Shown one piece after another: positions 17,201 through 49,941 of a stretch of 64,000 nucleotides of DNA. The DNA is from Candidatus Woesebacteria bacterium GW2011_GWA1_44_23 (GTDB taxonomy: Bacteria; Patescibacteriota; Microgenomatia; UBA8517). The stretch covers positions 21,409 to 85,408 of the forward strand of contig LCIL01000005.1 in NCBI GenBank assembly GCA_001001045.1, in the 5' to 3' direction. The notes under the pieces are model-generated. The model did not search any database and was not told the origin of the DNA. It saw only the letters and a program-made list of their open reading frames with translations. Each line of letters opens with the position of its first letter. Within the stretch, counting starts at the first letter, position 1. The translations under genes and the position numbers were made by a program.

Positions 17201-18890
17201 GTCGGTGCTGAGTAACAACACAATATACCCCACAAACACCCTTCAGGATCTGCTTTTGGGTTCGTCTGCCACCGCATCAGCCAAATTTGCATTCAAAGGG
17301 GTTGGATCAGGAGTCCCTACAGCTTCCATCTCAGGAACAACTGCCAATGTAGCTACATTCATTGATGGTAACGGTAATATTTCCACAACAAACCGTAATA
17401 ATCTGATACTTGGAAATTCCTCCACATACAATTCAACCGGGAATATTCTTCTTAACCCCAATGGGACTGGAAATGTGGGGATTGGGACAACTGCCCCAAG
17501 TGGAAAGACCCATATTTTAGGATCTACAAACTCTGGGAACCAGCTTCTTGTCCTACAGAGTTCTGATGATTCCATAAATGACAACGCCCTTGAGATTCAG
17601 ACAAGCTCAGGAACTGTAGTAAGCCGATTTCGCGGTGATGGACGACTCTTTGTTTCAAATCAAATCGGAGTAACCAATGGAGCCTACTCCGGCAACTGGT
17701 ATGGACATCAACTGGATTTGACTGGAAGTGGTACCGTTTCTATTACTGCCGCAGGTAATTCTTATTTTAATTCTGGCAATGTTGGTCTCGGTACTGTTTC
17801 CCCGACAGCCAAACTTGACGTAGCAGGTGACGCTTCCACCTCTGCCTCGCTTGTATTTAGAGGTGCCACCCCAACCATTGATATTCTTAACGGTTCAACT
17901 CTCACATTCCAATCCTCCCCCGGTGGGGATGCCGGTCTAACAAGCATTGCTACCCTTGCACCTGCCGGCAACTTTACCGTTAACGGAACATTAAATGGAT
18001 TAACGGTATCGGGAGGAACAATAACGGGAGGGACCTGGAATGGAAGTTTAATTGGTACTCAATGGGGTGGAACGGGGGCCAATAACTCCACCGCAGCCCA
18101 ATATTCAGTTCCTTACTACTCTGCAACGGGAGTATTGGGAGGAGTTCTAGCTCCGGGAACCTCAGGATATGTATTGACCACAAACAGTACCAGTGGAGCT
18201 CCTACCTGGACCAATGCAGGAAGTGTTGGAACCAACTACTGGCAACTAAATAGCCTTGTTCTCTCCCCTGCCAATGCCTCTGCGTATGACCTTGCTATAG
18301 GAGGGACAGCAACAGGTTCTGCCTTCCAGGTATTTGCTGCAACCGGAGATATTACAACCTCGGGAGATTTGGCTCTCAATGGTGGGGATCTTACAACCAC
18401 AGGTGATTTGACCATTAATCCTGCGGGTGGGGATGTCTACTTGAACTCAGACAATCTTAACCTTACGGCCTCCACCAACCTTATCTTTGGATCAACATCA
18501 CTTGGAGAATATACATCAAACACGGATTCGGGAGCATATGTTGTTGGTGTATATGATGAATTCACATACTCTACTGCTACCAATATACAGGGAGTGCTAA
18601 AAAGTTTTGATACGGCCATTGCAGGAGCTTCTCTTTGGCAAAGAACAACAGGTTCACTCGCTCCTGCAAACATTACAGACTCACTTAACCTTGGCGCTAC
18701 CGCCACAGCAAGTGCCCTCGTGCACCTTGCCGGTACTTCGGGAGAAAACTCATTCATTAATACGGGTAATGTGGGGATAGGAACAAGTGCTCCTTCCACA
18801 TATAAGCTCCAGGTAGTAGGAACGGGAGGATTTAGTACAGACAGGCTGCTGCCGTTACTTTCGGAAACGCTTCATACCAGACGAATATAA
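14202..18890 (+). CDS. giant surface protein, part 1 (1562 aa): SAM-like half-domain, TM helix, tail-fibre-like repeats (GxVGIGTTxPxxKLDV)
   Basis: TM helix GASYLGVAVALILASTIGLGVY. More than 15 copies of the motif N(V/L)GIGTT(S/N)P.(A/Y)KL(D/H)V. Internal 200-aa near-identical duplication. Confidence 0.7.
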   Translation: MSNLPDITPDLIKRYQEDLVARFSPATVKRKSISVGKFLDWAQKEGFLDTNPGGVLSAQRSKETLIPAKAAGKTGLRKWYHRYQSIPGASYLGVAVALILASTIGLGVYNQFFKNAQNPLAYPTSLTPPSRYLSFQGRLTNQFGNPITAVTSVTFKLYDDPSAGTTLWTGTCNVSPDTDGVFSSLLGSDCGTQLTSNVFSENAAVWLGVKVESDLEATPRVQIATVAYATNSETLQGFPASASATINTVPVIDNSGQLVIAASSPKIQSTSGTFAIEGQALTISTPTASNGDVTIAPDGTGQLNLTFSGASPGSGTGMVNATDANLTSGSLYYGEVANDATGYNLLELASGATPRTKFAVDSAGNATLSGTINGLAISGGTITSGTWNGTVISTTYGGTGQDWDSIAQGSLPYFSGTGTMSTLAPGTSGYVLMTQGASANPIWTPSSGVGTNYWQLTSNALSPVNSTYALNIGNTASTSAYFHVPGTNNQNAWFNLGTGYLGVGTTSPTAILDISGNTTTSLVKITQNHSWSGTEYALTVSGYSNLGGFRINAADGANAIYNTLNGTLGFTNNQGYPITFSSWSGSTGTERMRIDTTSGNVGIGTTSPSQKLDVAGNVNISGYATASASLNVGSGNALAGIGNISYSNALLPGGVAGTSGYVLTSSGGGVNTWTNPATVGTNYWQLNGLVLSPANAVAYDLTIGGTATGSAFQVFAATGNITTSGDLALNGGDITSTGDLTIDPAGGDVFLNSDNLNLTASTNLIFGSTSLGEYTSNTDSGAYVVGVYDEFTYSTATNVQGVLKSFDTAIAGASLWQRTAGSLAPANITDSLNLGNTATASALVHLAGTTGENSWINTGSVGIGTTNPTFKLHVIGTAGFSNTVTLTTNNGFFFGTKTDGSTTHRLIGLNNSNQLQIGENANGVPLIFKSGSSGQMLFDTSGNLGIGLTNPSYKLDVTGDINLTGALRDNGSAGTSGQVLSTTGTGVQWIDAAGVGTNYWSVLSNNTIYPTNTLQDLLLGSSATASAKFAFKGVGSGVPTASISGTTANVATFIDGNGNISTTNRNNLILGNSSTYNSTGNILLNPNGTGNVGIGTTAPSGKTHILGSTNSGNQLLVLQSSDDSINDNALEIQTSSGTVVSRFRGDGRLFVSNQIGVTNGAYSGNWYGHQLDLTGSGTVSITAAGNSYFNSGNVGLGTVSPTAKLDVAGDASTSASLVFRGATPTIDILNGSTLTFQSSPGGDAGLTSIATLAPAGNFTVNGTLNGLTVSGGTITGGTWNGSLIGTQWGGTGANNSTAAQYSVPYYSATGVLGGVLAPGTSGYVLTTNSTSGAPTWTNAGSVGTNYWQLNSLVLSPANASAYDLAIGGTATGSAFQVFAATGDITTSGDLALNGGDLTTTGDLTINPAGGDVYLNSDNLNLTASTNLIFGSTSLGEYTSNTDSGAYVVGVYDEFTYSTATNIQGVLKSFDTAIAGASLWQRTTGSLAPANITDSLNLGATATASALVHLAGTSGENSFINTGNVGIGTSAPSTYKLQVVGTGGFSTDRLLPLLSETLHTRRI
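16236..16840 (+). repeat. about 600-bp internal near-identical duplication, copy 1 (copy 2 at about 18227..18835)
   Basis: The encoded 200-aa segments GTNYWQLN.LVLSPANA...GVIGTTNP are over 90% identical. The antisense ORFs 16247..16813 and 18437..18799 share identical peptides. Confidence 0.7.
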
Positions 18891-18925: not shown

Positions 18926-21900
18926 ATGATCAAAGGAACAAGCGGAACACTTAGTGCAATTACGGGGACAGCCGGATATGTAACTTACTGGAGTGATGCC
19001 AATACCATCGCAGCGGAACAATTTGTGACCACAGCCCAAGGAGGCTTGGGAGCAAATGTAACGGCAGGAGGTATAGGAGAAATCCTTTACTCAACAGGAA
19101 CAACCACGTATGACTCCTTAACTGCGGGGACTAGCGGATACATCCTTAAAGCAGCAGGAGCGGCTGCTCCTGCCTGGACGGCGCCTGCTGCTTTGACCAA
19201 GACGGATGACACCAATGTTACCGCCACTCTCGGGGGAAGCGCTTCCACCGCTTTGGTCAATGCTGCCTCCATTACCCTGGGCTGGACGGGACAGCTTTCC
19301 TTGGCCAGGGGCGGAACAAATAAAGCAATGACAGCATCAGCCGGAAGTGTTGCCTACTCCGATGCCGATTCACTGGAACTAGGGGTGGGAACTTCCGGAT
19401 ACGTACTTACCTCAGCAGGAACGGGAACTCCTACTTGGACCAATCCTGCAACACTCGGAACCAATCACTGGCAGCTTGCAAATAACATCCTGGCACCTAT
19501 TAATGTAACCAATGATCTTGCTATTGGGGGAAACTCTACAGCTTCTGCAAAATTCCAGGTGATGGGAACAACAGGCAATATCTCAACAGCCAACAATACC
19601 GTTGACTGGACACTAAACTCTGCAGTTGATGCACTAAATATTGATACCAATACACTTTCAGTAGATGCATTAAATAACAGAGTAGGGATTGGGACAACCA
19701 ATCCTTCTTCAAAAGTGGAGATCTCCGATGGAACAGACTCATTACAAATAGCCGCAAATGGCGATCTTACCTTTGTTGATGCTGACAGCTTTGCGCAAAT
19801 CATAGGACCTAACGGGGGCGGTCTCTATATCAGCTCAGGGACAAGTCAGGATATAGACCTTAATGCCGGCTCAAACAGAATCTATGTTAACGAGGGTCAA
19901 TTAGAATTTAATGCTTCAAGCAGCGATGCTATTTTAGATATTAATAAAAATGGAACAAGTCTACTAAGAATTGAGAATGAATGGGGTGGACAGGTTGCCA
20001 ATATGTATGTGGAGGGCCGCGTCGGTATTGGCACGACTGCTCCTACCGCAGAACTTGATGTTGCCGGTACCGCTTCTGTCTCTGCACTAACCATACGCGG
20101 CGCGTCTCCCGGCTATATAAACCAAGTCAACGGAAACAGCCTAATATTCCGCACGTCTCCCGGAGGAGATACGGGACTTACCGAAAAAATGACTCTCACC
20201 AACGCAGGCTACCTTGGAATCGGAACAACGTCTCCAAATACTAGTCTTCAGGTTGGATCGGGAACGAGCAATCACTCGCTAAGTGCTAATGACACCCTTC
20301 TAACCGCCGATCTTGAACTGGATGGAACAATGTATCTTGATGGCGGACAGATAGCCAATTCGGCCGGAACGGTGTCATTTAGCCTTTCCGCCACACCTGC
20401 AACTTCTTACAACTATCTTTCGTCCAGCAGTTGGCTTATTGATAATCCTGTCAATGTAGGCCAGGCTGCCCTGATGGTAAATCAAGGGAAAGGAGGAGAC
20501 ATTTTTACAGCCTCCGCTTCGGGATCTACTAAGTTTGTCATCAAGAACGATGGCAAAGTCGGGATTGGGACAACAGATCCTCAGGCAATTACACATATAA
20601 AAAACATGAATAACACGCAAGAGATGACAATTCTCCAAATCGATCCTGGTACTTTCACTACGGCAGGCACCTTCTCTGGCATAGTGGCAGATTTCAGTAG
20701 TATTACCCGAAGCGATAGCGACGCCATTGTTTATGGTATCTTTTTAAACAGTCCAACGGCAGGAGGCACCCCGCTCGATACGGTATACGGATTGTACATT
20801 GCAGGGACCAACTGGAATTACGGGATCGTGTCCGAAGACGATGTCTGGTTTCTATCCAACACAACTATCGGGGACGCCAGCGGTGATGCGGTTACGGTAA
20901 ATAGCGCCGGTTGGACTTTCAGCAATGATACCAACTTTTCTCTTTCCGGTGGGGTCAACGGACTGTCTTTCGATACAAGTACTCTGTCAATTGATGCAAC
21001 TAATGATCGAGTCGGCATTGGAACAACCAGCCCCAATGCCAAATTGGAAGTAACCGGAGATGTTTACCTGAGTAACGGTGCAACCCGGAATATAAAAATC
21101 CCAGCGAATATTGATGCTAACGGCAACGATCTTTATATCATGGCCGGAAGCGGAACCTCGACCGGGCCTGGCAATTATAACGGAGGGGATCTCTATCTTG
21201 ATGCCGGCAGTGGTATCAATGCCGGAGTCCCGGGGGATATTCTGCTTCAAACCACGAGCGGTAATGTCGGTATCGGTTTGACAAACCCCAGCCAGGCTCT
21301 TCAGGTTACAGGTAGTATTAATACCAGCGTCCAGTTCCTGGGTCAATCGGCAGATACCGTCTCTGCTCCGGCTTTCTCATGGACCGGTAATACGACTACC
21401 GGAATATATCGTCCTGCCGCCAGCCAAATTGCTCTTACCCTTGGAGGAACCCAAAGAGCTCTTTTCACCGCCACAGCCGTTACCCTTACCGGCCAGACAA
21501 CCCTTACCGCCTCATCACTGTCTACTCTCACCACATCCGCCACACTTAGTTTGGGTGGTGCCACAACTTTGACCTTTACTTCAGACAATGCCACCATCAA
21601 TGGTTCTGATGTTGCAGACGGCGATCTGACTCTTCAAGGAACATCCAACGCGACAAGGACAACAAGTTACGTTCTGCTTCAACCCACAGCCGGATACGTC
21701 GGCATTGGCACGACAGCACCTGTAACCCTGCTACATATACCCAGCACAGCCGATGGAGGTTTGAGCACTCATGGCTCTGAGGTATTAGGCCCGGTATCTG
21801 GAATAAATATGATGATGGATTCTAACGAAATCATGGTAAGAAACAATGGTGTCGCTTCAGCGCTGTATTTAAATCATGAGGGTGGGACTGTCAATATAAG

Positions 21901-23980
21901 CCAGTCAACTGCAGGTATCTTTTCAGTTAACACTAATGGACTTTATGTTAATGCAAGCAATAGTGTCGGCATTGGAACAACGGCACCCGGGGAGGAGCTT
22001 GATATAGCAGGACAAATCCAATTTAACTTGGATGGCGCCGCGGGAGATAATACGATTGGTGTTTGTAAAAGCGTGGCTGACAGCACGGGGGTAGAAGCCG
22101 ACGTTGAATTCCGAGACTGCAGCGGTACTCCGGGTGATATTGCGGAATATTATGCGGCGGAGGCCGACTTACATCCCGGAGACATTGTATCTATTACATA
22201 CATTGACAACAAACCCACGTTGATCAAAACAAACACTTCCTATGACAAGAATGTATTTGGAGTTGTATCTACCTATCCTGTCGGACAACACGGAAAACCG
22301 TTAAGTTCCGGTCTCTATTCTGCAGATGAATATCCAACAGCCATAGGTCTTGCAGGAAAAGTGCCGGTTAAAATCAGCGCAGAAAACGGACCTGTGGCAC
22401 CGGGTGATCCACTCGTATCGTCCTCCATTCCCGGCGTTGCCATGAAAGCTGGAAAAGCAGGCAAGATCATCGGTTATGCAATTGAACCGTATGACGGATC
22501 AACAACGGTCAGTAACGAGGTCAGGGTGCAGGAGTCTATGCGTAGCGGCGCAACCATGAAGTTCAATCTTGACCCACAAGACCCGACAGAGCCCGGAGTC
22601 GGCAAAATTCTGATGGCAGTCAACAATTCCACATATGATCCGGATATTTACCTTACCGATTCCGGCAATCTGAACGTTACCGTTGATCAAAACGGAAACT
22701 ACGAACTTACCGATACCACGACAGGAAACATAATCGACAGGGTTGGTGCATTTGCCGAAACGGTAGCCGCAACGGTGAGGGCAGGAGCAATTGTAACTTC
22801 CGATTTTGTTACCGAAAACCTGACCGCAGAAGTTGCCAACATAGCAAGTGTTGTTGCCCAAAACATTCAGGCAGGTGTGGTTGTAACTCAAGACCTGGCT
22901 ACAACTTCATTTACGGCTTTCCAGGGGACGGTTGACAATATGCTGATAAGTACGGGTTTGGTAGCCCAAAATGTACAAACGGATCTTATCTCTCCCCTTG
23001 CCGATTCTACTGACGTAAAAGTACAAGTGGGATCAAGCGCAACACCCTCCGGAAAGTTCATTGTCCAAGATACCGAAGGAAGTGCTGTGGCTTCAATCGA
23101 CAACGAAGGGAACGCCACATTCTCCGGAACTCTATATGCGGGAGCGATTGAGTCTCAGAGCCTGGATGACATTAAAGCCCTTTTGACCAGTGTCCAGACG
23201 GATCAGAATCTTTTGAAGGATGCTGCAAACTGGAATACTTTAACTGCAACAAACTCTGCAAGTCTTGATCAAATAGCGGTTGCCGATCTTTATGTAACCA
23301 ATCAAGCGGCCATTAATTCTCTCTCCGTAACCAATAGTGTAACAATAGGTTCCGATATGGTATTTAGTTCAACGCTCAACGACCAGTCATTGGCCGTCAA
23401 CAGCATCGATACGCTTTCCGCCCCCCTTAAGATTCAGGCTCTTGCCATGGCTCCTGTAGAAATCATGGCGGGCTTAGTCACAATTGATACTCACGGAAAT
23501 GTAAATATCAGCGGGAATCTTTATGTTGCCGGCCGGGTTAAGGCTTCCGGATTGACTTTGTCGGAAACCGATGTCCCGGAGAATGCTACAGCTTCAGCTC
23601 TTCTTACTCTTCAAAACCTGGCCGGGAGCGAGGTTGCCTCGGTTAATGCATCCGGCTCGGCCCAATTCGGATCAATCTCCACTCCCCAACTTGTTATTGC
23701 GGGGGCTGATGCAACGCAATCGGGTACTATTATAAACGGGGTTATTTCTACAAACTCAACCGTCGGGCAGGCGGTTATCCCGGCGGGAACCAGTGAAATT
23801 ACGATTAAAAATCCTAAAGTTACGGACTACACTTTGGTCTACGTAACTCCAACCTCTTCGACGGAAAACAACGTACTATATGTAAAGAGTAAACAGGGAG
23901 GTCAGTTTGTTGTTGGGTTTGCAAACCCAATAAATGTTGACGTCAGCTTTAACTGGTGGATAGTTCAAGTGAGCCAATGA
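18926..23980 (+). CDS. giant surface protein, part 2 (1684 aa; frame open from 18836): tail-fibre-like repeats and a distinct C-terminal region
   Basis: Same GIGTT repeat family. The frame continues upstream to 18836, which points to a single frameshift relative to part 1. C-terminal region GDIAEYYAAEADLHPGDIVSI...VFGVVSTYPVG. Confidence 0.7.
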   Translation: MIKGTSGTLSAITGTAGYVTYWSDANTIAAEQFVTTAQGGLGANVTAGGIGEILYSTGTTTYDSLTAGTSGYILKAAGAAAPAWTAPAALTKTDDTNVTATLGGSASTALVNAASITLGWTGQLSLARGGTNKAMTASAGSVAYSDADSLELGVGTSGYVLTSAGTGTPTWTNPATLGTNHWQLANNILAPINVTNDLAIGGNSTASAKFQVMGTTGNISTANNTVDWTLNSAVDALNIDTNTLSVDALNNRVGIGTTNPSSKVEISDGTDSLQIAANGDLTFVDADSFAQIIGPNGGGLYISSGTSQDIDLNAGSNRIYVNEGQLEFNASSSDAILDINKNGTSLLRIENEWGGQVANMYVEGRVGIGTTAPTAELDVAGTASVSALTIRGASPGYINQVNGNSLIFRTSPGGDTGLTEKMTLTNAGYLGIGTTSPNTSLQVGSGTSNHSLSANDTLLTADLELDGTMYLDGGQIANSAGTVSFSLSATPATSYNYLSSSSWLIDNPVNVGQAALMVNQGKGGDIFTASASGSTKFVIKNDGKVGIGTTDPQAITHIKNMNNTQEMTILQIDPGTFTTAGTFSGIVADFSSITRSDSDAIVYGIFLNSPTAGGTPLDTVYGLYIAGTNWNYGIVSEDDVWFLSNTTIGDASGDAVTVNSAGWTFSNDTNFSLSGGVNGLSFDTSTLSIDATNDRVGIGTTSPNAKLEVTGDVYLSNGATRNIKIPANIDANGNDLYIMAGSGTSTGPGNYNGGDLYLDAGSGINAGVPGDILLQTTSGNVGIGLTNPSQALQVTGSINTSVQFLGQSADTVSAPAFSWTGNTTTGIYRPAASQIALTLGGTQRALFTATAVTLTGQTTLTASSLSTLTTSATLSLGGATTLTFTSDNATINGSDVADGDLTLQGTSNATRTTSYVLLQPTAGYVGIGTTAPVTLLHIPSTADGGLSTHGSEVLGPVSGINMMMDSNEIMVRNNGVASALYLNHEGGTVNISQSTAGIFSVNTNGLYVNASNSVGIGTTAPGEELDIAGQIQFNLDGAAGDNTIGVCKSVADSTGVEADVEFRDCSGTPGDIAEYYAAEADLHPGDIVSITYIDNKPTLIKTNTSYDKNVFGVVSTYPVGQHGKPLSSGLYSADEYPTAIGLAGKVPVKISAENGPVAPGDPLVSSSIPGVAMKAGKAGKIIGYAIEPYDGSTTVSNEVRVQESMRSGATMKFNLDPQDPTEPGVGKILMAVNNSTYDPDIYLTDSGNLNVTVDQNGNYELTDTTTGNIIDRVGAFAETVAATVRAGAIVTSDFVTENLTAEVANIASVVAQNIQAGVVVTQDLATTSFTAFQGTVDNMLISTGLVAQNVQTDLISPLADSTDVKVQVGSSATPSGKFIVQDTEGSAVASIDNEGNATFSGTLYAGAIESQSLDDIKALLTSVQTDQNLLKDAANWNTLTATNSASLDQIAVADLYVTNQAAINSLSVTNSVTIGSDMVFSSTLNDQSLAVNSIDTLSAPLKIQALAMAPVEIMAGLVTIDTHGNVNISGNLYVAGRVKASGLTLSETDVPENATASALLTLQNLAGSEVASVNASGSAQFGSISTPQLVIAGADATQSGTIINGVISTNSTVGQAVIPAGTSEITIKNPKVTDYTLVYVTPTSSTENNVLYVKSKQGGQFVVGFANPINVDVSFNWWIVQVSQ

Positions 23981-24220: not shown

Positions 24221-26149
24221 ATGGAAATAACCAAGCTCATCCGAAATATCGAAAAATACATCTTGGTAGCACTGGCGGGTTTATTTGCTTTATTTGTTTT
24301 TCCGAAATTTGCCTCCCCCTTCGTTGTCCCTAAGGAAATTTTTGGGGCCGTTGCCGTATCGACAGTGTTGGTTCTTTGGTCGGTGAGATCGATTATTAAA
24401 AGAGAGTCGACTTTTTCTGTCGGAAAGTTTGATCTTGGAGTACTTTTGATAGCACTTGCCTATGTTGTTGCGGCGGTAGTTAAAACTCCGAACAAAATGG
24501 AGGCATTTTTCTTCCCCGGTACCGTAACTTTTGTCATTATTTCTGCTATATTCTATTTTCTGGTCAACCAGTTCGGCAGAAGGACAAAGAACCTGATTTT
24601 AATTGCGCTTTTCGGCTCGGGAATCCTTCTTACGATCTCAATTCTTTTTACGCAGCTTGGGCTTTTTGCCAAAATTCCCCAGCTTCCGGATTTTATGAAA
24701 AACTCTTCTTTCAATCCCGTAGGCGGAGCGCTGCCTTCGGCTCTTTACCTGGTAACCTTACTTCCCGTTGGTATTGCCCTGGTTATTAAGGAGAAGGACT
24801 TGGCCAAAAGGTTATTTTACGGGGTTGCGTCTGTTGTTATCTTTTTTGGAGCAGCTCTTCTTACCATTAACCTTCTTCCCGGAAAGCCCCAAGCCTTGAT
24901 TTTTCCCAGCCTGCTGACCACCTGGGCGATAGTTATTGAGACCTTGAAGACAAGCCCAGTCTGGGGAATGGGCCCTGATAACTATGTTACCGCTTTTAAC
25001 TTGTTTAGGCCCATTTCCTACAATCAAACTGCTCTTTGGGCCGCCAGATATGCCACCGCGAATAACTACTATTTTACTTTGATTACCGAGGTTGGTTTTG
25101 CCGGACTTGCAGCCATCTCGGTACTTCTTATCGGTATTTATAGGGCGGTAGTGGCGGGCTTTAAACAGAAAAACTGGGAGATTGCTTCTTTGGCTCTGCT
25201 GGTTGTGCTTTTTGCGATATTTCCATCCGCTCCGGTTCTCTTTTTCCTTTTGATGGCTCTTCTGGCGGTTTTCTCGAAATCGGAGGAGAAATCCGTAAGT
25301 TTGGCTACCAATAGGGTCCCGACTGCCATTGTTGCAGCTCCGATACTTATTGGGGTTGTTGCTTTGGCAATTTTTGGTACAAGGGCCGTGATGGCGGAAG
25401 TAACTTACAAGAAGTCTTTGGATGCATTGGGCAGCAACAACGCCAAGGATACCTATACGCTAATGGCTCAGGCGATAACCCAGAGCCCATATGTGGATCG
25501 GTACCACGCTTCCCTGGCGCAGGTAGAGATGGCCATTGCTTCGTCAATCGCCAACAACAAGGATTTGACGGAAGAAGACCGTCAAACTATAACACAACTG
25601 ATCAGTCAGGCTATAAATGAGGGCAAGGCGACCGTGACCCTTAATCAGGGAAGGTCGGCCAATTGGGAGCTTCTTGCCCAGATCTATCAGAACATTATGT
25701 CCTTTGCCGAAGGGGCCGATCAGTTCGCCATTGATACATACACGCAGGCGGTTGCGCTTGATCCGATAAACCCCAACCTGAGAATCGGACTCGGTGGAGT
25801 GTATTACGCACTCGGCAGATACGATGACGCGATTGATATCTTTAAGCTTGCAGCTTTGGCAAAGCCCGATTTGGCCAACTCCCATTATAATCTGGCCATA
25901 GCCTATGGAGAGAAGAAAAACTATGACAGTGCAATTGCCGAGATGAACACGGTCTTGACCCTTGTGGCCAAAGATTCACCCGACTACACCTTGGCCAAAA
26001 ATACTCTGGATGCCTTGGAGAAAGCCAGACCCGCAACGCCCGCCGCAGCCGGATCTGAAAATCTGACCCCTCCCCAAAAGCAGGAAACAGTCATAGAGCC
26101 TCCCATAGAACTTCCGGAAGAGGCTACTCCCCCCGCAGCCACACCGTAA
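24221..26149 (+). CDS. O-antigen ligase (Wzy_C)-domain polytopic membrane protein with C-terminal TPR repeats; candidate protein O-oligosaccharyltransferase
   Basis: Ten or more TM helices. WGMGPDNYVTAFNLF...ANNYYFTLITEVGFAGL resembles the Wzy_C/WaaL/PglL motif. C-terminal TPR repeats ...LGRYDDAIDIFKLAALAKPDLANSHYNLAIAYGEKKNYDSAI. Confidence 0.65.
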   Translation: MEITKLIRNIEKYILVALAGLFALFVFPKFASPFVVPKEIFGAVAVSTVLVLWSVRSIIKRESTFSVGKFDLGVLLIALAYVVAAVVKTPNKMEAFFFPGTVTFVIISAIFYFLVNQFGRRTKNLILIALFGSGILLTISILFTQLGLFAKIPQLPDFMKNSSFNPVGGALPSALYLVTLLPVGIALVIKEKDLAKRLFYGVASVVIFFGAALLTINLLPGKPQALIFPSLLTTWAIVIETLKTSPVWGMGPDNYVTAFNLFRPISYNQTALWAARYATANNYYFTLITEVGFAGLAAISVLLIGIYRAVVAGFKQKNWEIASLALLVVLFAIFPSAPVLFFLLMALLAVFSKSEEKSVSLATNRVPTAIVAAPILIGVVALAIFGTRAVMAEVTYKKSLDALGSNNAKDTYTLMAQAITQSPYVDRYHASLAQVEMAIASSIANNKDLTEEDRQTITQLISQAINEGKATVTLNQGRSANWELLAQIYQNIMSFAEGADQFAIDTYTQAVALDPINPNLRIGLGGVYYALGRYDDAIDIFKLAALAKPDLANSHYNLAIAYGEKKNYDSAIAEMNTVLTLVAKDSPDYTLAKNTLDALEKARPATPAAAGSENLTPPQKQETVIEPPIELPEEATPPAATP

Positions 26150-26256: not shown

Positions 26257-27417
26257 ATGCCTGCCAAACTGCTTAGAAGGGTGGCTGAAGAAGGTACGTT
26301 CAGTCATATATATAATAACGGGGTTGAAAATATAGCCATCTTCAAGGACCGGCAAGACTTTGAAGTCTTTCTGGGTTTTTTGAAAGATTACCTATCTCCG
26401 GTCAGTTCCGAAGTTCCCAAAAAAGAATTCACTATTGAAGGCCGCTCTTTCCGGGGCACTCCCCGCCAACCTAAAAATTACCTGGGCAGAGTCGAGCTTA
26501 TCGCCTACCGGCTCACCCCTACCCATTTCCACCTCATCCTGCATCAGAATACCCCGGACTCGCTTGGGAATTTCATCAGGTCCCTCTGCACCAGATACTC
26601 GATATATTTTAATAAAAAATATTCCCATTCCGGAGCTTTATTCAACGGCCCCTACAAATCAGTTTATATCAAGGGTATATCCCAGCTTTTGCACTTCACC
26701 CGGTATCTCCACCGCAGTCCAGATAATGGTGAAGACCCTGTCAAAATATATACATCATACCCAGAGTATATCGGTCAAAGACAATCTTCATGGGTAAAGA
26801 CGAACGCGGTGCTTTCGGTCAAAGGAGTAGACGAGTACAAGGATTTTGTAGAAAAATATCAGCTTAACCAAGAAGAAAGAGATATTCTCGAAGGTGTTCC
26901 TTTTGATGTCAAAGCCCCGCACAAGGAAGAAGTCCTTTATGCACCCGACACCGTTTCCGCTTCTTCCCATGGGACACCTGAACTTTCCCACAAGGCACCG
27001 CCTACTGATTTAAAACCCCGGCCCCGTATTTTCGAGTACGGACTGGCAATGGGGGTTTTTATTGTACTTCTGAGCTTTGGGTTAAATAATGTCCGTGTTT
27101 CTCAGGCAAGATATTCAACAAACTCTCCGGTTCTTTCCGAATCAACAAGCATTATGCCCTCCCCGACCGCTGCCTTACCACCCACCGGTTCTCCCGAACC
27201 AAAAATAATGGTAACAGTTAAAACTGCTGATGCCTCGGTAAGTGCCAATATCCGCAAGGAGCCGAGTTTTCAGGCGGAAATAATCGGTATGGCCAAAAAC
27301 GGTGAAGTTTTTGAATCCGTGTCGATAGGCCCGGAGTGGAATGAGATCAAACTAAATGACGGTTCAATAGGATTTATATTATCAAAACTGGTACTAATAG
27401 ATCAAACTAATATCTAA
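26257..27417 (+). CDS. IS200-like Y1 (HUH) transposase domain fused to TM helix and C-terminal SH3b domain (copy 1, HuH intact)
   Basis: NIAIFKDRQDFEVFLGFL...VELIAYRLTPTHFHLILHQ...RYSIYFNKKYSHSGALFNGPYKS...RYLHRSP...YTSYPEY; TM helix GLAMGVFIVLLSFGL; SH3b ANIRKEPSFQAEIIGMAKNGEVFESVSIGPEWNEIKLNDGSIGFI. Confidence 0.7.
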   Translation: MPAKLLRRVAEEGTFSHIYNNGVENIAIFKDRQDFEVFLGFLKDYLSPVSSEVPKKEFTIEGRSFRGTPRQPKNYLGRVELIAYRLTPTHFHLILHQNTPDSLGNFIRSLCTRYSIYFNKKYSHSGALFNGPYKSVYIKGISQLLHFTRYLHRSPDNGEDPVKIYTSYPEYIGQRQSSWVKTNAVLSVKGVDEYKDFVEKYQLNQEERDILEGVPFDVKAPHKEEVLYAPDTVSASSHGTPELSHKAPPTDLKPRPRIFEYGLAMGVFIVLLSFGLNNVRVSQARYSTNSPVLSESTSIMPSPTAALPPTGSPEPKIMVTVKTADASVSANIRKEPSFQAEIIGMAKNGEVFESVSIGPEWNEIKLNDGSIGFILSKLVLIDQTNI

Positions 27418-27418: not shown

Positions 27419-28009
27419 ATGCGCAAGATTTTAACATATATCGGCTTTGTAATCGCATGTGTTTTGGTTTCTCTGCTTTTTGTAACCGCCACTACATATA
27501 TTCAGTTAGCCGTTGCTGTCATCCTCTACCCCATCGTTGCCTATTTTGTAATGAAGATCCTCCCCCGCAAGACTAGAGTGGTCCCGGCAGTCGCGGTACA
27601 GACAGCGGGAACACAGGAGGAGGTTGCCGATTTTGACAGACGTACATTTCTCAAACTTGTGGGGGCAACAGGAATTTTCTTTTTTGTGTCCTCGCTTTTC
27701 GGTAAATGGGCCGGTGCTTTGCCGTTTGGCAAATCCTTGGGGTTGGGAGGCAATAGCATACAGGGGAATTCCGCCACCCCCGGAGCCGGCAACCCAGGAT
27801 CTTTGACTGCAAATGGCTACCAAATTTCCGAGATCGATGACGGCGCAATTACGTTTTACGGATTTACCAATGTTGACGGATCCTGGCTAATCATGAAGGA
27901 AGACACCGAAACAAGTTCTTTCCGCTATGCAAAAGGAAGCTCGGGATTTCCCGCAAGTTGGGATAACCGGCAAAATCTCAAGTACGACTACTACTATAAT
28001 CTCTTCTGA
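27419..28009 (+). CDS. membrane protein with internal twin-arginine-like motif (DRRTFLKLVGATG) and conserved C-terminal domain; partner of the Y1-TM-SH3b gene (copy 1)
   Basis: The start lies 1 nt after the upstream stop. Two N-terminal TM helices, then RRTFLK plus a hydrophobic stretch. C-terminus YGFTNVDGSWLIMKEDTETSSFRYAKG...YDYYYNLF is conserved with the 43904..44572 product. Confidence 0.6.
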   Translation: MRKILTYIGFVIACVLVSLLFVTATTYIQLAVAVILYPIVAYFVMKILPRKTRVVPAVAVQTAGTQEEVADFDRRTFLKLVGATGIFFFVSSLFGKWAGALPFGKSLGLGGNSIQGNSATPGAGNPGSLTANGYQISEIDDGAITFYGFTNVDGSWLIMKEDTETSSFRYAKGSSGFPASWDNRQNLKYDYYYNLF

Positions 28010-29007
28010 GATTCTTTTGTATTAAGCCCTGCCCGGATTTGGCTTTCGCGGGTAACTATGGCTCCGTAAAAAAGAATACTCAGGGAGAACAACAAAAACA
28101 TTGCCGCCTGACGCACATAAAATGGAGTCGTCGTATCAACCATCTGTTGATCCGGTGAAGCCGTGACCAAAAGCCAATTTCTGTTTCCCAAAGGTACGGG
28201 GGAATATGAAATCAGACGGCCGTCCCTAGCTAAACTCCCTTCCTTTGTCGTATTTAGGGCATCCTTGAGACTGTCGCTGACAGTTTGATTACCCAGAAAC
28301 GGTTCTTCGCCGGCTTCAAAAACCTTGACTCCCACTTTATCAGGCGTCTTGCTATCGTACAATAGATCCCCTTGCACACCTATCAGATACACCTCTGTAG
28401 CATCCGATATTTTCATTAACTCCAAATAGTGTTCCGTCAAAGGCTTCAATTTCGCCGAGGTAACTACAGCCCCTACAAAAACGCCGTTTTGAAATACCGG
28501 AGAGACCACCGGAATTATTACCTGGCCCTTGGTGCCGCCCATTCGGCTAACAATCGAGGTGCCAACCAAATATTCCCCTTCATCTGACCAGTTTTTGGCC
28601 CAGTCAAAATAATCACGGTCGGCCAGGGAAACTCCCACATCTTGCGTTCCCAAAACATTGGAGATAAACCTGACAATTCCGCGGCTGTCCGTTAATGCGA
28701 CTCCGGCAACCAGGCCGCTGTTGCTCCATTGAGTTACAAAGGCGTCTAAATCAGATTGGGTATTTTCACCCCAGCTTTCCATACTGCCCAACTTCGCAAG
28801 TACCGCAACCGAATTGCCGAACGTTTCGAAAAAAGCCTCAAGATTGCTGGCTTCAGCTCTCGTCACCATTTGTTGCTGATTTAAAAACTGGTTAGTGACC
28901 GCAGGTTTGACTCTCCAGCTTAGGATTACTAAAAAGGCAGCACCCAAACCCACTATCAAAAGAAGGCCAAATAACCAAATCCTGCCCGACAATGCTTTCC
29001 AAAACAT
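27994..29007 (-). CDS. membrane protein with periplasmic Cache-like sensor domain flanked by two TM helices, no output domain
   Basis: N-terminal TM helix IWLFGLLLIVGLGAAFLVIL, a 250-aa extracytoplasmic domain, and C-terminal TM helix AAMFLLFSLSILFYGAIV. Confidence 0.45.
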   Translation of the reverse strand: MFWKALSGRIWLFGLLLIVGLGAAFLVILSWRVKPAVTNQFLNQQQMVTRAEASNLEAFFETFGNSVAVLAKLGSMESWGENTQSDLDAFVTQWSNSGLVAGVALTDSRGIVRFISNVLGTQDVGVSLADRDYFDWAKNWSDEGEYLVGTSIVSRMGGTKGQVIIPVVSPVFQNGVFVGAVVTSAKLKPLTEHYLELMKISDATEVYLIGVQGDLLYDSKTPDKVGVKVFEAGEEPFLGNQTVSDSLKDALNTTKEGSLARDGRLISYSPVPLGNRNWLLVTASPDQQMVDTTTPFYVRQAAMFLLFSLSILFYGAIVTRESQIRAGLNTKESQKRL

Positions 29008-29100: not shown

Positions 29101-29886
29101 ATGCTCTCGATCATAATTCCGTCTTATAAAGATCCCCTACTGGGTAAAACCATTGAATCTCTTCTGGAAAACGCCGAGGGTGAAATAGAAATAATCCCCG
29201 TTCTTGACGGATACTACCCGGAAACCCCGATAAAAGAGGATAGAAGAATAAGAGTTGTGCACCTTGGCAGAAATCAAGGTATGCGAAGAGCGATAAACGC
29301 GGGAGTTTCGGTAGCCCGGGGGGAATTTCTGATGCGGAACGACGAGCACCAGATGTTCGGCAAGGGATATGACGTAATTCTTACCCGTGATTGTCAGCCT
29401 AACTGGATTATCACACCCAGGCGTTATGCGCTTGATCCTGTAAAGTGGGAAATAATGAAAGAGGTTCCACCGGTAGATTTCATGAAGCTTAAAATCGTCA
29501 ACATGGCACCCGGTGTCAGAAAATTTTCAGGTGTTGAGGCCCCGGGAGATCCGGGAAAACCCATTCAGGAATCAATGGCTATGCAGGGAAGCTGTTGGGT
29601 AATGCCGCATGCATGGTGGGACAAAGTTATCGGAGAGCTCGAAAACGAAGGTTATGGACCACATTATCAGGACAGCCATGAGATGGTGTTTAAAACCTGG
29701 CAGGCAGGGGGAAAATTAATGGTAGATAAAAACACCTGGCACGCCCACAAACACAGGAATTTTCCCCGGACGCATAATAACGGCACTGCCGAAAACCCAT
29801 CCAATAATGAATCCTGCTGGGCTTATTCATTAAGTATTTGGGAAGATTACTATAATAAAGAAATTAAACCAAGGTGGAAGGTTTAA
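29101..29886 (+). CDS. glycosyltransferase family 2-like (GT-A) protein, paralog family with QGSCW motif
   Basis: MLSIIIPSYKDP...; motif MAMQGSCWVMP shared with the 31019 and 36362 products. Confidence 0.55.
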   Translation: MLSIIIPSYKDPLLGKTIESLLENAEGEIEIIPVLDGYYPETPIKEDRRIRVVHLGRNQGMRRAINAGVSVARGEFLMRNDEHQMFGKGYDVILTRDCQPNWIITPRRYALDPVKWEIMKEVPPVDFMKLKIVNMAPGVRKFSGVEAPGDPGKPIQESMAMQGSCWVMPHAWWDKVIGELENEGYGPHYQDSHEMVFKTWQAGGKLMVDKNTWHAHKHRNFPRTHNNGTAENPSNNESCWAYSLSIWEDYYNKEIKPRWKV

Positions 29887-37648: not shown

Positions 37649-40600
37649 ATGGCAGTAACATACGTCAAAGCTAGTACCCCCAATACAGATGCGGCGGGAG
37701 CCTTTACAGTAACAGGTGCAGCTCCTGCTGTTGCTGGGAATATTATCATCCTTCAAATTTTTCAGGACGGTACTACTGACGGGGCGGTAACTCAAACCAG
37801 TGCTACCAATATTACTGCTCTAGATGGTACGGCTAATACATGGACTGCTATTACCGAACAGTCGGTAGGAGCATCAGACGAAGGTAGACAGTATCTATGG
37901 GTAGGGCGTTCAAGCGGAAGGTCTACTCCCACATTTACAGGCGGCAACACAACTTCAGAGGATCTTTACCTCAGGATGTATGAGTTTAGCGGAGTAGATG
38001 CTAATGCCACGACTTTATCTGGGATTCTTGAAAACGGTACTGCAGGAACTGTAGCTAACGGCACTGGAACATCTGCGTCCGTTTCTGATACAAGCGTTCA
38101 GACACTGGGAGATGGCCGGCTCGCATTAAATTTTATCGCTGTAAACGATGATCCCCAGGCAGCAGAACTAGCCGCAATGACTGGTGAAACAGGGGGGGAT
38201 TGGGCTTATCCTGTTGCTGCGTGGGGTTCTAGTTCTGGCACTGACGGTACAATCGCTTTAGTTACAGCTTCTATCCCTTCTTCGGGAACAATTGATGGAG
38301 GCTCAGATGCCATAACTTCAGCTGCTTGGGGGGTGATAGGCTTTGCCCTTAAACCTGAATTTACTCCAACAGTAGCTTTAAGTACCCCTGCAGATGACGC
38401 GACAGGAGTAAGTACCACCCCAGCCCTAGTTTTTACAGGAACAGATGCTAACTCAGATGAAGTGGAATATGAGGTACAGGTAGATACAGTAAACACTTTT
38501 GATTCTTCGTCAGCCACTATGGCTAGCAATAGTGAAAGTACTTATGACCATGATTACATTGATAATTATAATTCAGTACCTCCTTCATGGTATGGTCAGA
38601 CATTTACCCCACCTTTTATGGGACCCGTCACTTCAGTTAAGTTTTATTTAAAAGGTTCCGATGGTTTAACGGGTAACATGCCAGTTAGATTGTATGCCAC
38701 AGACACCTCTGGTACTCCAGTAGGTGAAATATTAGCCACATCAGCTAATTTGGATTTATCTAGTCTTTCAACTTCTGCTTATGAACTAGTAGAGTTTATA
38801 TTTAGTTCCCCATACACAGTTGAGTCTGGGGTTCTGTATGCATTAACTTTAGAAAATCTTAGTTCCTCTAACCTATATGTTGGTGCAGATATTAGTTCTC
38901 CTGCTTATACAAATGGTACTGCAATTAGTATGAGTCCCGGTGGTTACCTGACTGTTGCTAGTGATTTATGTTTTTATGTTTATAGTGGAGGTTCTCTTCT
39001 TGACATCTTCTCCCTCGCCGATAACGATGCTAACTGGGCAGGCACAGGAGCACCTAATCCCTTTCCTTCAGGAAATGAAATAACCTATACAGTACCGGCA
39101 GGAAGTGCTTTAGCCGCAGGAACTACTTATTACTGGAGAGTACGAGCTATTGACCCTCTAGGAAGTAATGCCTGGGGATCTTGGAGTCCTGGGGCACATA
39201 GTGGATATAGTGAGTTTACAACACAGGCAACAGGTTCATTTTCGCCTTCGATTTCTCCATCTGTAAGTCCAAGTGCGTCTCCTTCGGTATCCCCCTCAGT
39301 CAGTCCGTCTATCTCGCCTTCTGTAAGTCCCTCAGTTAGCCCTAGTGTTTCCCCAAGTCTATCTCCCAGCGTTTCTCCTTCTGCATCTGTTTCGCCATCA
39401 ATCTCACCCAGTGTTAGTCCTTCGGAAAGCCCATCAGTATCGCCCTCGGTCTCGCCTTCAGTTTCACCCTCTGCATCCATATCTCCATCGACCTCACCCA
39501 GTGTTAGTCCATCAGTAAGTCCCAGTGCAAGTGCTAGCCCATCGGTCTCACCATCGGCTAGTCCGTCGGTGTCTCCCAGCGTTTCTCCTTCCGTAAGTCC
39601 GTCGGCTTCTGTTAGTCCGTCTATGAGTCCGAGTGTATCGCCCTCTGTAAGTCCCTCTGCATCAGTTTCACCATCTATCAGTCCTTCTGTGTCTCCCTCC
39701 GTCAGCCCCAGTGTCAGCCCCAGTGTCTCACCCAGCGCAAGTATCTCTCCAAGTGTTAGTCCCAGCGTGTCGCCAAGTGCTTCTCCTTCTATTTCACCTT
39801 CCGTTTCTCCATCAGCTTCTATATCTCCGTCAGTTTCGGAAAGTGTAAGTCCATCCGTTAGCCCAAGTGCGAGTGTAAGCCCGTCGGAATCACCGTCAGT
39901 TAGTCCATCTGTATCTCCAAGCTTTAGCCCTTCGATCTCAGCCAGTATATCGCCAAGCATATCTCCGAGTGTGTCCCCTTCGGCTTCCGTATCCCCATCG
40001 GTTTCCCCCAGTATCAGCCCTTCTGTCTCCCCAAGTGCCAGCCCAAGTCAAAGCCCATCGGCATCAATTAGTCCTTCCGTAAGTCTATCCATTTCTCCTT
40101 CTTTCTCTCCGTCCGCATCCATTAGTCCCAGTGTCTCTCCCAGCATATCGCCCTCGATCAGTCCATCAGTATCCCCTTCGGAGTCTCCCTCTGCATCAGC
40201 TAGCCCATCTATTAGCCCTAGCGTATCTCCTTCTGTCTCGCCCAGTGCTTCTGTGTCCCCTTCGGTAAGTCCGTCTGCAAGTGTTTCGCCTTCTGTCTCC
40301 CCATCGGCCAGTCCATCTGTCTCTCCGAGTCAAAGTCCATCGATTAGCCCATCAATTAGTCCGAGTATATCTCCTTCCGTTTCGCCTTCAGCGTCGATTA
40401 GTCCGTCAATTAGTCAATCAGCAAGTCCGTCAGTGTCACCGAGTGCGAGTATTAGCCCTTCACTAAGTCCAAGCATGTCTCCTTCTGTTTCTCCTTCTGG
40501 GTCAATCTCACCCTCAATAAGTGCTTCCGTTTCGCCTTCTGTCTCCCCTTCAGCATCTATTTCTCCGTCAATAAGTCCTTCTATTAGTCCGTCTGTTTCC

Positions 40601-49731: not shown

Positions 49732-49935
49732 ATGCTTAATTTCATTAAAAATATCGGTCCCGTAGAGTGGGTGGTTATTCTTCTTATTCTGATAATAATT
49801 TTCGGCCGCAAAATACTTGTAAGCCTTGGCCGTGCCAGTGGTGAAACAGTTAGGGAACTGAAAAGCGTTAAGAAAAGCTTGACCGACGCTGTTGAAGGAA
49901 CAGAGGACAAGCCCGAGAAGAAGGAGGTGTCTTAA
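49732..49935 (+). CDS. tatA: twin-arginine translocase subunit TatA/E
   Basis: N-terminal TM helix followed by the FG hinge: WVVILLILIIIFGRKILVSLGRASGETVRELK. Confidence 0.7.
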   Translation: MLNFIKNIGPVEWVVILLILIIIFGRKILVSLGRASGETVRELKSVKKSLTDAVEGTEDKPEKKEVS

Positions 49936-49941
49936 AAATTT

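Follow-up and report, generated by a model that had tools for sequence, protein, structure and literature searches.

Introduction

To our knowledge, a joint requirement for Sec and Tat is known or predicted for just four membrane protein families, each of which bears cofactors. The closest to the case considered here are the actinobacterial three-helix Rieske proteins (e.g., Streptomyces coelicolor Sco2149 and M. tuberculosis QcrA), which are inserted by Sec and then by Tat (Keller et al., 2012, PMC3471235; Tooke et al., 2017, PMC5449189). The hallmarks of such dual insertion are the low hydrophobicity of the last helix and the positive charges at its C-terminal end (PMC5449189, PMC7317946). 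In proteins of this class, an even number of Sec-type helices leaves a consensus twin-arginine motif (S/T-R-R-x-F-L-K) on the cytoplasmic side directly ahead of the Tat-dependent last helix, and the outer domain, which holds a cofactor, has to fold before it is exported. The other families, predicted or verified, comprise Sco3746 (heme-molybdenum), the polyferredoxins (five helices), and the membrane-bound YkuE-type metallophosphoesterases (four helices) (PMC5449189). In model systems, the replacement of the arginine pair by Lys-Arg is poorly tolerated, though it is a conservative change (PMC7317946). Natural Tat signals with Lys-Arg exist, as in Salmonella TtrB (Hinsley et al., 2001, as cited in PMC7317946).

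Here, a stretch of 64,000 nucleotides from Candidatus Woesebacteria bacterium GW2011_GWA1_44_23, called the window below, was analysed. It contains two genes of a family in which a Tat-signal-like final membrane helix comes after two ordinary ones, and the family is therefore probably a new, cofactor-free case of insertion by Sec and Tat. Judging from sequence, we assign a probability of about 0.6 to the reading that its members are small membrane proteins integrated by Sec and Tat jointly and carrying no cofactor.

Two paralogous genes and their family

The open reading frames at 27419..28009 (copy 1) and 43904..44572 (copy 2), both on the forward strand, are paralogues. They can be aligned end to end with 33% identity (E 1e-42), which indicates that their likeness reflects homology and not chance. 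Both proteins consist of a two-helix hairpin, the motif [KR]-R-x-F-L-K, 16 uncharged residues, basic residues, a spacer, and a beta domain of about 65 amino acids. The ORFs and the alignment confirm the description in an earlier note on this DNA, according to which both proteins combine an N-terminal hairpin, a Tat-consensus-like segment, and a conserved C-terminal domain. A permissive six-frame scan for [RK]R-x-hydrophobic-hydrophobic-x with an uncharged hydrophobic stretch behind it found none in the window beyond these two copies.

Copy 1 (196 aa, containing DFDRRTFLKLVGATGIFFFVSS) matches a hypothetical protein of Microgenomates group bacterium GW2011_GWC1_43_13 with 100% identity. Its N-terminal hydrophobic hairpin (aa 2-47, 27422..27559) was modelled by AlphaFold2, with an alignment of 121 sequences, as helices 2-23 and 27-47 at a pLDDT of about 90, and it is predicted to be inserted by Sec/YidC with the N-terminus inside. 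In the same model, one helix (residues 67-100) includes the motif and the hydrophobic stretch, and residues 104-130 form a disordered spacer. The Tat-consensus-like motif, found in the sequence and by a motif scan, is D73-R-R-T-F-L-K79 (27635..27655); the h-region of 16 uncharged residues (aa 80-95) and the c-region K-W-A-G-A (aa 96-100) follow it (together 27656..27718), the latter consisting of a basic residue, K96, and an A-x-A-type tripeptide. The C-terminal beta domain covers aa 132-196 (27812..28006). Copy 2 (222 aa, containing DINKRVFLKMIGATGLSFFISS) has KR where copy 1 has RR. By alignment with copy 1, its hairpin lies at about aa 5-49 (43916..44050) and its C-terminal domain at about aa 155-222 (44366..44569). 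The first helix of this hairpin appears weak, since a crude hydrophobicity scan scores only one segment ahead of the motif. According to the sequence and the scans, the motif N97-K-R-V-F-L-K103 is followed by a 16-residue h-region (aa 104-119) and by K120-R121 (44192..44260 in all); the sequence after the h-region reads K-R-L-P-S, with no A-x-A.

The family comprises 1823 clusters at 50% identity, mostly from Microgenomates; neither Pfam nor NCBIfam has a model for it, and its members are annotated as "hypothetical protein". The C-terminal domain is predicted by AlphaFold2 to form four beta strands and a short helix (pLDDT about 95 to 97); it is rich in aromatic residues, and G148, W156, R169, Y170, G173, W181, and Y189 (copy 1 numbering) are invariant in it. 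Conservation counts revealed no conserved Cys or His, and no cofactor-binding family was matched in Pfam, NCBIfam, or the PDB profile search, so there is no obvious need for the domain to be exported folded. Foldseek gave no match to its fold in the PDB at E<=0.001, and its profile found nothing among PDB sequences at E<=1. The single Foldseek match in BFVD is an uncharacterised phage protein of 89 aa (E 8e-6), which is uninformative on function; a scan of viral contigs for relatives found none. The hairpin is as strongly conserved as this domain, with F21 invariant and T23, Y27, Q29, Y37, and P38 kept in at least 90%. On a crude scale, two segments upstream of the motif were counted in 167 of 253 members, one in 54, and three or four in 30; in distant members, two or four helices precede the motif, and we read the counts of one to four as two- and four-helix forms in which some helices fall below the threshold.

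The internal motif and the last helix

The motif begins at residue 73 in copy 1 and at residue 97 in copy 2, i.e., internally, after a conserved and translated hairpin. It had been considered earlier that the RR/KR motif might not be conserved in orthologues. This doubt is answered by the 121 close sequences, in which R75, F77, and K79, along with D71 and G85, are invariant, while position 74 is occupied by K (111) or R (10); R75 is also invariant in 149 diverse sequences. Of 147 representatives at 50% identity, 63 have RR and 72 have KR. In 214 of 253 members, the h-region is made up of exactly 16 residues, none of them charged. In all 253, one to three K/R residues occur within eight residues past it, and this stretch has a positive net charge in 223. 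The A-x-A tripeptide ahead of a conserved FFG is found in 34 of 76 RR members as against 5 of 186 KR members.

The hydrophobicity of the last helix was compared with that of the upstream helices by a crude sum on the scale of Hessa 2005, taken over 19 residues and position-independent, unlike the published position-dependent predictor; its median is +1.8 for the last helix and 0.04 for the upstream ones. By the same crude sum, 67% of members have a last helix that is less favourable than any of those upstream. The h-region of copy 1 is fairly hydrophobic by Kyte-Doolittle (about 2.0), which makes its insertion by Sec conceivable.

Curated models recognize the motif region to a different extent in different members. 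PF10518 (TAT_signal) aligns with residues 72-85 of copy 1 at 13.7 bits, below its cut-off of 22.7, and gives no match to copy 2. TIGR01409 (TAT_signal_seq) matches 37 of 149 members at E<=0.1, and its cut-off of 16.7 bits is exceeded at internal positions in P0260 (residues 206-234, 17.5 bits) and P0266 (residues 196-223, 18.1 bits). Models of the N-terminal anchor of the cytochrome b6f Rieske protein also match the region of the motif and helix, weakly (15-16 bits vs. thresholds of 154-250); of the PetC models, this anchor part is the only one that matches. Among the observations that speak against a Tat reading, neither copy in the window reaches the threshold of a curated Tat-signal model, and Lys-Arg stands in place of Arg-Arg in copy 2 as well as in some 90% of the nearest homologues.

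The orientation of the motif can be deduced from the charge distribution and from a natural fusion. The hairpin helices are uncharged, and the mean number of K/R residues is 1.5 at the N-terminus, 0.5 in the turn, and 10.2 in the linker. The family member P0172, present on two contigs from different samples, consists of two MerR HTH domains, then two helices, and then the motif. Both lines of evidence support a motif that faces the cytoplasm.

Comparison with known Sec/Tat-dependent proteins

Like the actinobacterial Rieske proteins, the family has two Sec-type helices, a cytoplasmic loop ending in a twin-arginine-type motif, a Tat-signal-like last helix with positive charges at its outer end, and a C-terminal domain outside the membrane, the last being a prediction here. 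The precedent that the earlier note saw in these proteins for an internal RR ahead of a late TM helix is borne out by the published work (PMC3471235, PMC5449189). Unlike them, the family has neither the Rieske fold nor the Cys/His cluster ligands (CxH, CxxH), its domain has only about 65 residues, Lys-Arg is its commonest pair, its hosts are CPR bacteria, and its use of Tat is predicted from sequence. With Sco3746 and the polyferredoxins it shares a motif placed directly before the last helix, and the family includes variants with four helices before the motif, i.e., five in all. The predicted features for release from Sec are common to the family, Sco3746, the polyferredoxins, and the YkuE-type proteins; the latter three bind a cofactor or metal, whereas the family shows none.

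A second group of relevant systems includes signals with Lys-Arg and uncleaved anchors. The chloroplast Rieske protein has a natural Lys-Arg Tat signal. The single-helix PetC of the cytochrome b6f/bc1 complexes resembles the family in its uncleaved signal anchor, predicted for the window's subfamily, and Lys-Arg is tolerated in natural signals. The signals of PetC, TtrB, and the chloroplast Rieske protein are N-terminal, unlike the internal one of the family.

The third comparison concerns regulators, namely the membrane one-component regulators of the ToxR/CadC type and the RsiV-type regulators, which are cut by signal peptidase. As in ToxR/CadC, membrane helices connect a cytoplasmic domain of DNA-binding type with a small domain outside, the former being MerR in P0172 and HTH_17 or Y1/HUH-like in the partner proteins. 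As in the RsiV type, some family members have A-x-A just outside the membrane. Unlike these regulators, to which it has no relation in sequence or fold, the family is linked to such domains by gene neighbourhood and one fusion only, and its regulatory role is putative.

Partner proteins and gene neighbourhood

Each family gene in the window directly follows, after a gap of 1 nt, a gene encoding a Y1_Tnp-like/SH3_3 protein, and a partner gene is located immediately upstream in most of 42 loci. The partner of copy 1 (26257..27417, forward strand) has a weak Y1_Tnp-like N-terminal domain (1e-3 in Pfam, below the cut-off), one TM helix, and a C-terminal SH3b domain (SH3_3, 1.5e-7). The partner of copy 2 (42856..43902, forward strand) has the same architecture by sequence and Pfam, with the HUH histidines and the Tyr replaced (RFDF, IRSLH). 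A profile of 25 partner proteins searched against the PDB matched SH3b structures only, including solved cell-wall-binding SH3b domains, and no HUH transposase; the Y1_Tnp assignment thus stays at the level of the weak Pfam match. The partner had been described earlier as a Y1-SH3b protein. The SH3b membrane protein is the consistent part of this description, but the Y1-like domain is sometimes missing or an HTH protein is found instead, and the cytoplasmic domains of the adjacent partners are either Y1/HUH-like or HTH_17.

Further neighbours recur as well. A gene for a dCache_1 membrane protein (27994..29007, reverse strand; dCache_1 4e-15) is convergent with copy 1 and overlaps its 3' end; a dCache gene occupies the same position in about 12 of 42 GTDB loci and, additionally, in L003/L005. 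The most constant downstream neighbour is a family-2 glycosyltransferase (29101..29886, forward strand; Glycos_transf_2 7e-14), for which tblastn matches (to 1e-157) were obtained in most loci, about half of them immediately downstream of the family gene or of its dCache neighbour. The window also encodes giant Ser/Pro-repeat proteins at 37649..42538 and 45051..49365, in which no N-terminal signal peptide is evident; the second lies between copy 2 and tatA.

Tat genes and alternative explanations

Pfam confirms the two tatA genes and the tatC that the earlier note had placed at 49732..50873. All three are on the forward strand: the tatA paralogues at 49732..49935 (TatA_B_E 1.1e-11) and 49942..50103 (TatA_B_E 1.7e-16), and tatC at 50124..50873 (TatC 8e-41), which lies downstream of both copies, 5.5 kb from copy 2 and 22 kb from copy 1. 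In an alignment with E. coli TatC, the two glutamates that bind the arginine pair, E15 and E103, have their counterparts in this protein. In a locus search with alignment A1, in which 42 independent GTDB loci were counted, tatA/tatC lies less than 10 kb from a family gene in five (L035, L040, L047, L048, and L050), as against 0.6-1.0 expected (Poisson p 0.0003-0.003), an excess that may be inflated if gene order is shared by descent. The family and tatC are present on one contig in three (near-)complete genomes and one Daviesbacteria genome; for the former three, contigs were paired between the family and tatC match lists by identical size (954911, 916571, and 925565), so that the pairing speaks for the presence of both in a few genomes only. 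In CP066693.1, a family gene and tatC are about 21 kb apart. Within about 795 kb of related DNA, one other ORF has an N-terminal consensus Tat motif (L040:11617), and the remaining matches outside the family are internal membrane-helix segments; family members are by far the commonest carriers of a Tat-like motif in the sampled DNA.

The alternative that survives best is that of a plain three-helix protein inserted by Sec/YidC only. It would treat D-x-D-K-R-x-F-L-K as a cytoplasmic juxtamembrane motif that sets topology by the positive-inside rule and contacts the partner domain or lipid head groups, its likeness to a Tat signal being coincidental or vestigial. The prevalence of KR in the window's subfamily and the sub-threshold scores of the window copies fit this explanation, as do a small, cofactor-free domain that Sec could thread, a reasonably hydrophobic h-region, and the 37 of 42 loci with no tat gene within 10 kb. 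However, the positive-inside rule cannot explain the invariant F77, L78, and K79, the fixed 16-residue h-region, or the basic residues on the trans side. The distant members with RR and A-x-A, the passing of a curated Tat-signal model, and the enrichment of tatA/tatC around family genes also argue against it. We consider insertion by Sec alone unlikely, though it deserves serious attention.

It can also be proposed that the family is an accessory or regulator of Tat, i.e., a membrane-tethered mimic of a signal peptide that docks on TatC and might hold the partner at the translocon or carry signal-less partners, e.g., the giant Ser/Pro-repeat proteins, by hitch-hiking. The family gene adjoins tatA/tatC in several genomes, and the apparent lack of an N-terminal signal peptide in the giant proteins and the abundance of Tat-like motifs in the family would suit such a role. 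However, the module is linked far more constantly to SH3b, dCache, and GT2 genes than to tat, and the conserved, well-folded C-terminal domain looks like cargo. An accessory function is therefore very improbable.

The least tenable explanation, with hardly any probability left to it, is that the product begins at an internal start just before the motif, giving a conventional N-terminal Tat or Sec signal and leaving the hairpin untranslated or as a separate product. An internal start followed by a plain Sec signal, which the earlier note had named as a possible better account, disagrees with the protein-level conservation of the hairpin, as strong as that of the C-terminal domain, and with the linker, which has no conserved Met in the 121 close sequences. 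Copy 2 contains no ATG, GTG, or TTG from codon 12 to the KR motif, and an internal start is thereby excluded for it; the only candidates in copy 1, ATG45 and GTG54, lack a ribosome-binding site. Some database entries (e.g., P0190, P0233, and P0239) do start a few residues ahead of the motif, and the reading frame of P0233 in L007 meets a stop about 60 codons further upstream. However, the start of P0239 is mis-called, its frame running on upstream through four helices and its tail being TGA read as sense, and L007 is a contig of 725 bp with 0.7x coverage. The short database members were rejected as a form with an N-terminal signal, L008 for a mis-called start and the wrong genetic code and L007 for low coverage.

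Proposed mechanism

In the preferred reading, joint integration by Sec and Tat, Sec/YidC would insert the hairpin, which has two helices here and four in distant members, during translation and with the N-terminus inside, and the basic linker with D-x-D-[KR]-R-x-F-L-K would be left in the cytoplasm. By analogy with the actinobacterial Rieske proteins, Sec would then be unable to finish inserting the last segment, because this segment is only 16 residues long, has Gly/Ser inside, and is directly followed by one to three Lys/Arg. The tethered segment would serve as a Tat signal recognized by TatC, and TatA/TatC would export the folded 65-residue domain. Members of the window's subfamily probably keep the segment as a signal anchor; distant members with RR have a conserved A-x-A just before the conserved FFG, which may permit signal peptidase to cut there. 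On the outer side, the aromatic-rich domain, held by its flexible spacer, probably works together with the SH3b domain of the partner, SH3b being a cell-wall-binding fold, and with the dCache neighbour, in a locus whose setting would be surface glycan synthesis.

The DNA-binding-type cytoplasmic domains of the partners (Y1/HUH-like, HTH_17, and the fused MerR) point to sensing or regulation at the envelope as the most likely, if weakly supported, function. A much bolder proposal, which we regard as doubtful, would make the family the main Tat client in Microgenomates and a new dual Sec/Tat class with a complete Tat signal inside a polytopic protein. In this proposal, signal peptidase would cut the RR/A-x-A signal and then release, or regulate, a small folded domain from a membrane N-terminal module that is linked to DNA-binding domains (MerR, HTH_17, HUH-like), either fused to it or encoded next to it. 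Export by Tat and cleavage would then act as part of a transmembrane signalling device for surface-glycan genes in ultra-small bacteria.

Significance

If joint integration by Sec and Tat is correct, this would be the fifth family that needs both pathways, very large, cofactor-free, and confined to CPR bacteria, and the handover from Sec to Tat would reach beyond redox enzymes. The Lys-Arg anchors and the Arg-Arg/A-x-A forms would provide a natural series for studying signal recognition. The family would also offer a specific explanation for the retention of tatA and tatC in bacteria that have genomes of about 1 Mb and lack a respiratory chain.

Two copies of a Microgenomates membrane protein family

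The two ORFs, 27419..28009 (196 aa; copy 1) and 43904..44572 (222 aa; copy 2), are as described in the earlier note and are homologous from end to end (33% identity over the whole length, E 1e-42). Each is separated by 1 nt from a preceding gene (26257..27417 and 42856..43902; partners 1 and 2) whose product has a Y1_Tnp-like domain (weak match) at its N-terminus, a single membrane helix, and an SH3_3 domain at its C-terminus. When the window was scanned from end to end in all six frames, with permissive settings, for a Tat-like motif and an uncharged hydrophobic stretch (h-region) after it, only the two copies were found. Copy 1 is a 100% match to a hypothetical protein of the CPR bacterium Microgenomates group bacterium GW2011_GWC1_43_13. 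A word-indexed search gave 244 relatives, and a profile search of 1.84 billion representatives gave 1823 clusters at E<=0.001, of which 674 reach E<=1e-10; the named hosts are Woesebacteria, Daviesbacteria, Levybacteria, Gottesmanbacteria, and other Microgenomates, and several genomes, like the window, carry two copies. MAG records titled “uncultured Gammaproteobacteria/Pseudomonadales” (L017, L019, L020, L022, L023, L027, L028, L033, L035, L036, L039, L045, L047–L050) bear the Microgenomates-type module and neighbours, and their titles are probably placeholders or wrong taxonomy. No family model in Pfam or NCBIfam covers the protein, and no paper was found on this family or on Tat signals placed internally in proteins of CPR bacteria.

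In the AlphaFold2 model of copy 1, obtained with a 121-sequence alignment, a hairpin of helices 2–23 and 27–47 is followed by a basic, poorly ordered linker, one long helix (67–100) that takes in the motif plus the hydrophobic stretch, a disordered spacer (104–130), and a C-terminal domain of four strands and a short helix (pLDDT about 95). This domain is rich in conserved aromatic residues, contains no conserved Cys or His, and resembles no solved structure significantly by fold or by profile. Only BFVD A0A6J7WTL6 matches the model significantly in structure (E 8e-6; 85 aligned columns, 26% identical); this uncharacterised 89-aa protein comes from an uncultured Caudovirales phage, and viral contigs, when scanned, yielded no relatives. 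The hairpin, whose second helix bears the signature “...L(Y/F)(L/F)P...Y(F/Y)”, occurs twice in four-helix members and recurs in a small, separately encoded membrane protein and in the end part of the HTH_17 partner (L048:3480-4358; L035:9830-10618; L047:9657-9995), and this suggests that the hairpin may be a repeated, interacting module.

The internal motif and membrane topology

Residues D71, R75, F77, K79, and G85 (copy 1 numbering) are invariant in 121 close sequences, and position 74 is occupied only by Lys (111/121) or Arg (10/121), so the motif is conserved in orthologues. Among 147 diverse representatives, many of which have four helices ahead of the motif, it is RR in 63 and KR in 72. 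The h-region is exactly 16 residues long in 214 of 253 members and is followed by 1–3 Lys/Arg in all 253; by a crude summing of Hessa-scale values its median is +1.8, compared with 0.04 for upstream helices. Of 149 diverse members, 37 match the Tat-signal model TIGR01409 at E<=0.1 and 11 match PF10518; the NCBI curated TIGR01409 cut-off is passed by two members, P0260 (residues 206–234) and P0266 (196–223), internally in both. Cytochrome b6f Rieske subunit models match the same region weakly through their N-terminal anchor part. Copy 1 falls below the Tat-model threshold (13.7 vs 22.7 bits), and copy 2 has no Tat-signal model match.

Lys and Arg together average 1.5 at the N-terminus, 0.5 in the turn of seven residues, 10.2 in the linker, and 2.4 directly behind the last hydrophobic stretch, a distribution that fits an N-in hairpin with a cytoplasmic linker and motif. 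An independent check is offered by the member P0172, which occurs on two contigs of separate samples (L055:2881-3999; L056:2208-3326), each time with the usual GT2 gene after it, and which joins two MerR-type HTH domains to a helix, a second hairpin-type helix, the motif, and then the last helix with the C-terminal domain. Assuming that a DNA-binding domain must be cytoplasmic, the two helices before the motif would place the motif in the cytoplasm as well. The C-terminal domain would then lie outside, provided that the last helix crosses the membrane.

Genomic neighbourhood and possible role

The module is housed in surface-glycan loci. In most of 42 GTDB loci it is followed at short distance by a GT2 gene, a convergent dCache_1 membrane protein (27994..29007 in the window) is next in about 12 of the 42 and in L003/L005, and in several loci the module is preceded by a TPR protein that matches Wzy_C weakly (24221..26149 in the window). 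The Y1-SH3b partnership proposed earlier holds for its SH3b half, as this domain, which matches solved cell-wall-binding SH3b domains, is nearly always present in the upstream partner. The Y1-like half is less constant: it is missing from the L035 and L048 partners, and in three of the loci with tat genes nearby (L047:9245-9995; L050:2481-3272; L040:4248-4996) an HTH_17 protein bearing two membrane helices at its C-terminus, plus a small membrane protein of ~110 aa, stands in for the partner. In the alignment of 25 partner orthologues, HFHL occurs in about 60%, with RFNL, RFDL, EFHL, and others elsewhere, and the Tyr of T-R-Y-L-H is not invariant; both are lost in partner 2. Since the HUH histidines and Tyr vary, a catalytic transposase role is unlikely, and the domain, in which the block R-S-L-C-T-R-Y-S-x-Y-F-N-K-K-x-x-x-x-G-x-L-F-x-G-P-Y-K-S is near-invariant, looks transposase-derived, domesticated, and membrane-tethered. 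The repeated coupling of the family to membrane-tethered DNA-binding-type domains suggests a putative envelope sensing or regulatory device.

Linkage to tat genes

Pfam agrees with the earlier assignment of tatA, a second tatA, and tatC at 49732..50873. The alignment shows that the window TatC keeps the equivalents of E15 and E103 of E. coli TatC, the glutamates binding the arginine pair. Within 42 loci, each from a different GTDB species genome, tatA/tatC lie <=10 kb from the family gene in five (L035, L040, L047, L048, and L050), in varying arrangements and at varying distances, where 0.6–1.0 would be expected for genomes of 0.7–1.2 Mb (Poisson p 0.0003–0.003, or 0.003–0.017 with L047 and L050 counted once). 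In three (near-)complete genomes tatC and a family member are apparently on one contig, as their contigs have the same length, and both are present in a Daviesbacteria genome; in the complete genome CP066693.1 the family gene is ~21 kb from tatC in the same envelope-glycan region, a spacing like that of copy 1 and tatC in the window. TatA/TatC were reported in Microgenomatia by a published survey (PMC9166423).

In ~795 kb of related DNA, a sample centred on the family and hence biased, ORFs with a Tat-like motif and h-region comprised family members and 13 other matches, most of them internal membrane-helix segments; the one classical N-terminal Tat signal in Microgenomates DNA was that of L040:11617. 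This ORF (11617-12036, and 11882-12604 in another frame) carries the consensus signal MPLTRREFLRLSTLAAGVVFLPNFAPAAE... and seems to run on in another frame, which would imply a frameshift or sequencing error.

The window also encodes giant Ser/Pro (“SPSVSPS”) repeat proteins with no evident N-terminal signal peptide (these and related ORFs at 37649..42538, 45051..46496, 46607..48106, 47905..49365, and 49487..49681), the second of which is spread over three overlapping frames; the opposite strand of the repeats gives long spurious “GETEG” ORFs. The repeat-protein C-terminal end (GFN.xT..LE.W.GS.W) recurs in a 64-aa ORF immediately upstream of tatA, and L052 and L054 have small ORFs in the same position. 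Elsewhere in the window, a 172-aa protein (13675..14193) consisting solely of phage-integrase N-terminal SAM-like domains (PF02899, 9e-15), without a catalytic domain, is followed by two giant proteins (14202..18890, 1562 aa; 18926..23980, 1684 aa) with no Pfam match.

Sec, Tat, or both

The precedent invoked in the earlier note, a Tat-dependent late helix in actinobacterial Rieske proteins, agrees with the literature: these proteins and two five-helix families were shown to require Sec to insert their first helices but Tat to insert the final one (Keller et al., 2012; Tooke et al., 2017), and the four-helix YkuE family is predicted to need Sec and then Tat likewise (PMC5449189; PMC7317946). 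The handover relies on a last helix that is weakly hydrophobic and carries positive charges at its C-terminal end (PMC5449189; PMC7317946). The present family shares with them an even number of helices upstream of the motif, a motif immediately ahead of the last helix, shortness and lower hydrophobicity of that helix, positive charges trailing it, and the presence of Tat genes. Unlike them it shows no sign of a cofactor, and Lys-Arg is commoner than Arg-Arg; a review describes Lys as a poorly tolerated replacement in the motif, yet also cites a natural KR signal (PMC7317946). Most likely (probability about 0.6), the proteins form a new family, free of cofactors, that is inserted into the membrane by Sec and Tat together. 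The main rival, a purely Sec-inserted protein whose motif merely resembles the Tat consensus, we consider rather unlikely.

Translation from an internal start followed by a plain signal is contradicted by copy 2, where the stretch from codon 12 to the motif is free of ATG, GTG, and TTG, by copy 1, whose only candidates (ATG45 and GTG54) lack a ribosome-binding site, by the linker, in which no Met is conserved (121 close sequences), and by the hairpin, which is as conserved as the C-terminal domain and is thus translated and under selection. Database entries apparently starting at the motif are unreliable as evidence for such a start. The L008 entry (P0239) was called from an internal Met, the reading frame running on upstream through four helices, and TGA read as sense adds a false 19-residue tail (the true ORF ends ...NNVF); L007 is a 725-bp contig at 0.7x coverage.

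The earlier note's suggestion of Tat dependence survives every test run, those on the start codon and on motif conservation included. Of 76 RR members, 34 have a strict A-x-A directly before the conserved (A)FFG, as do only 5 of 186 KR members; copy 1 has K-W-A-G-A at this position, and copy 2 has no A-x-A. The combination of RR and A-x-A after four helices could, if cleaved, prove more unusual.
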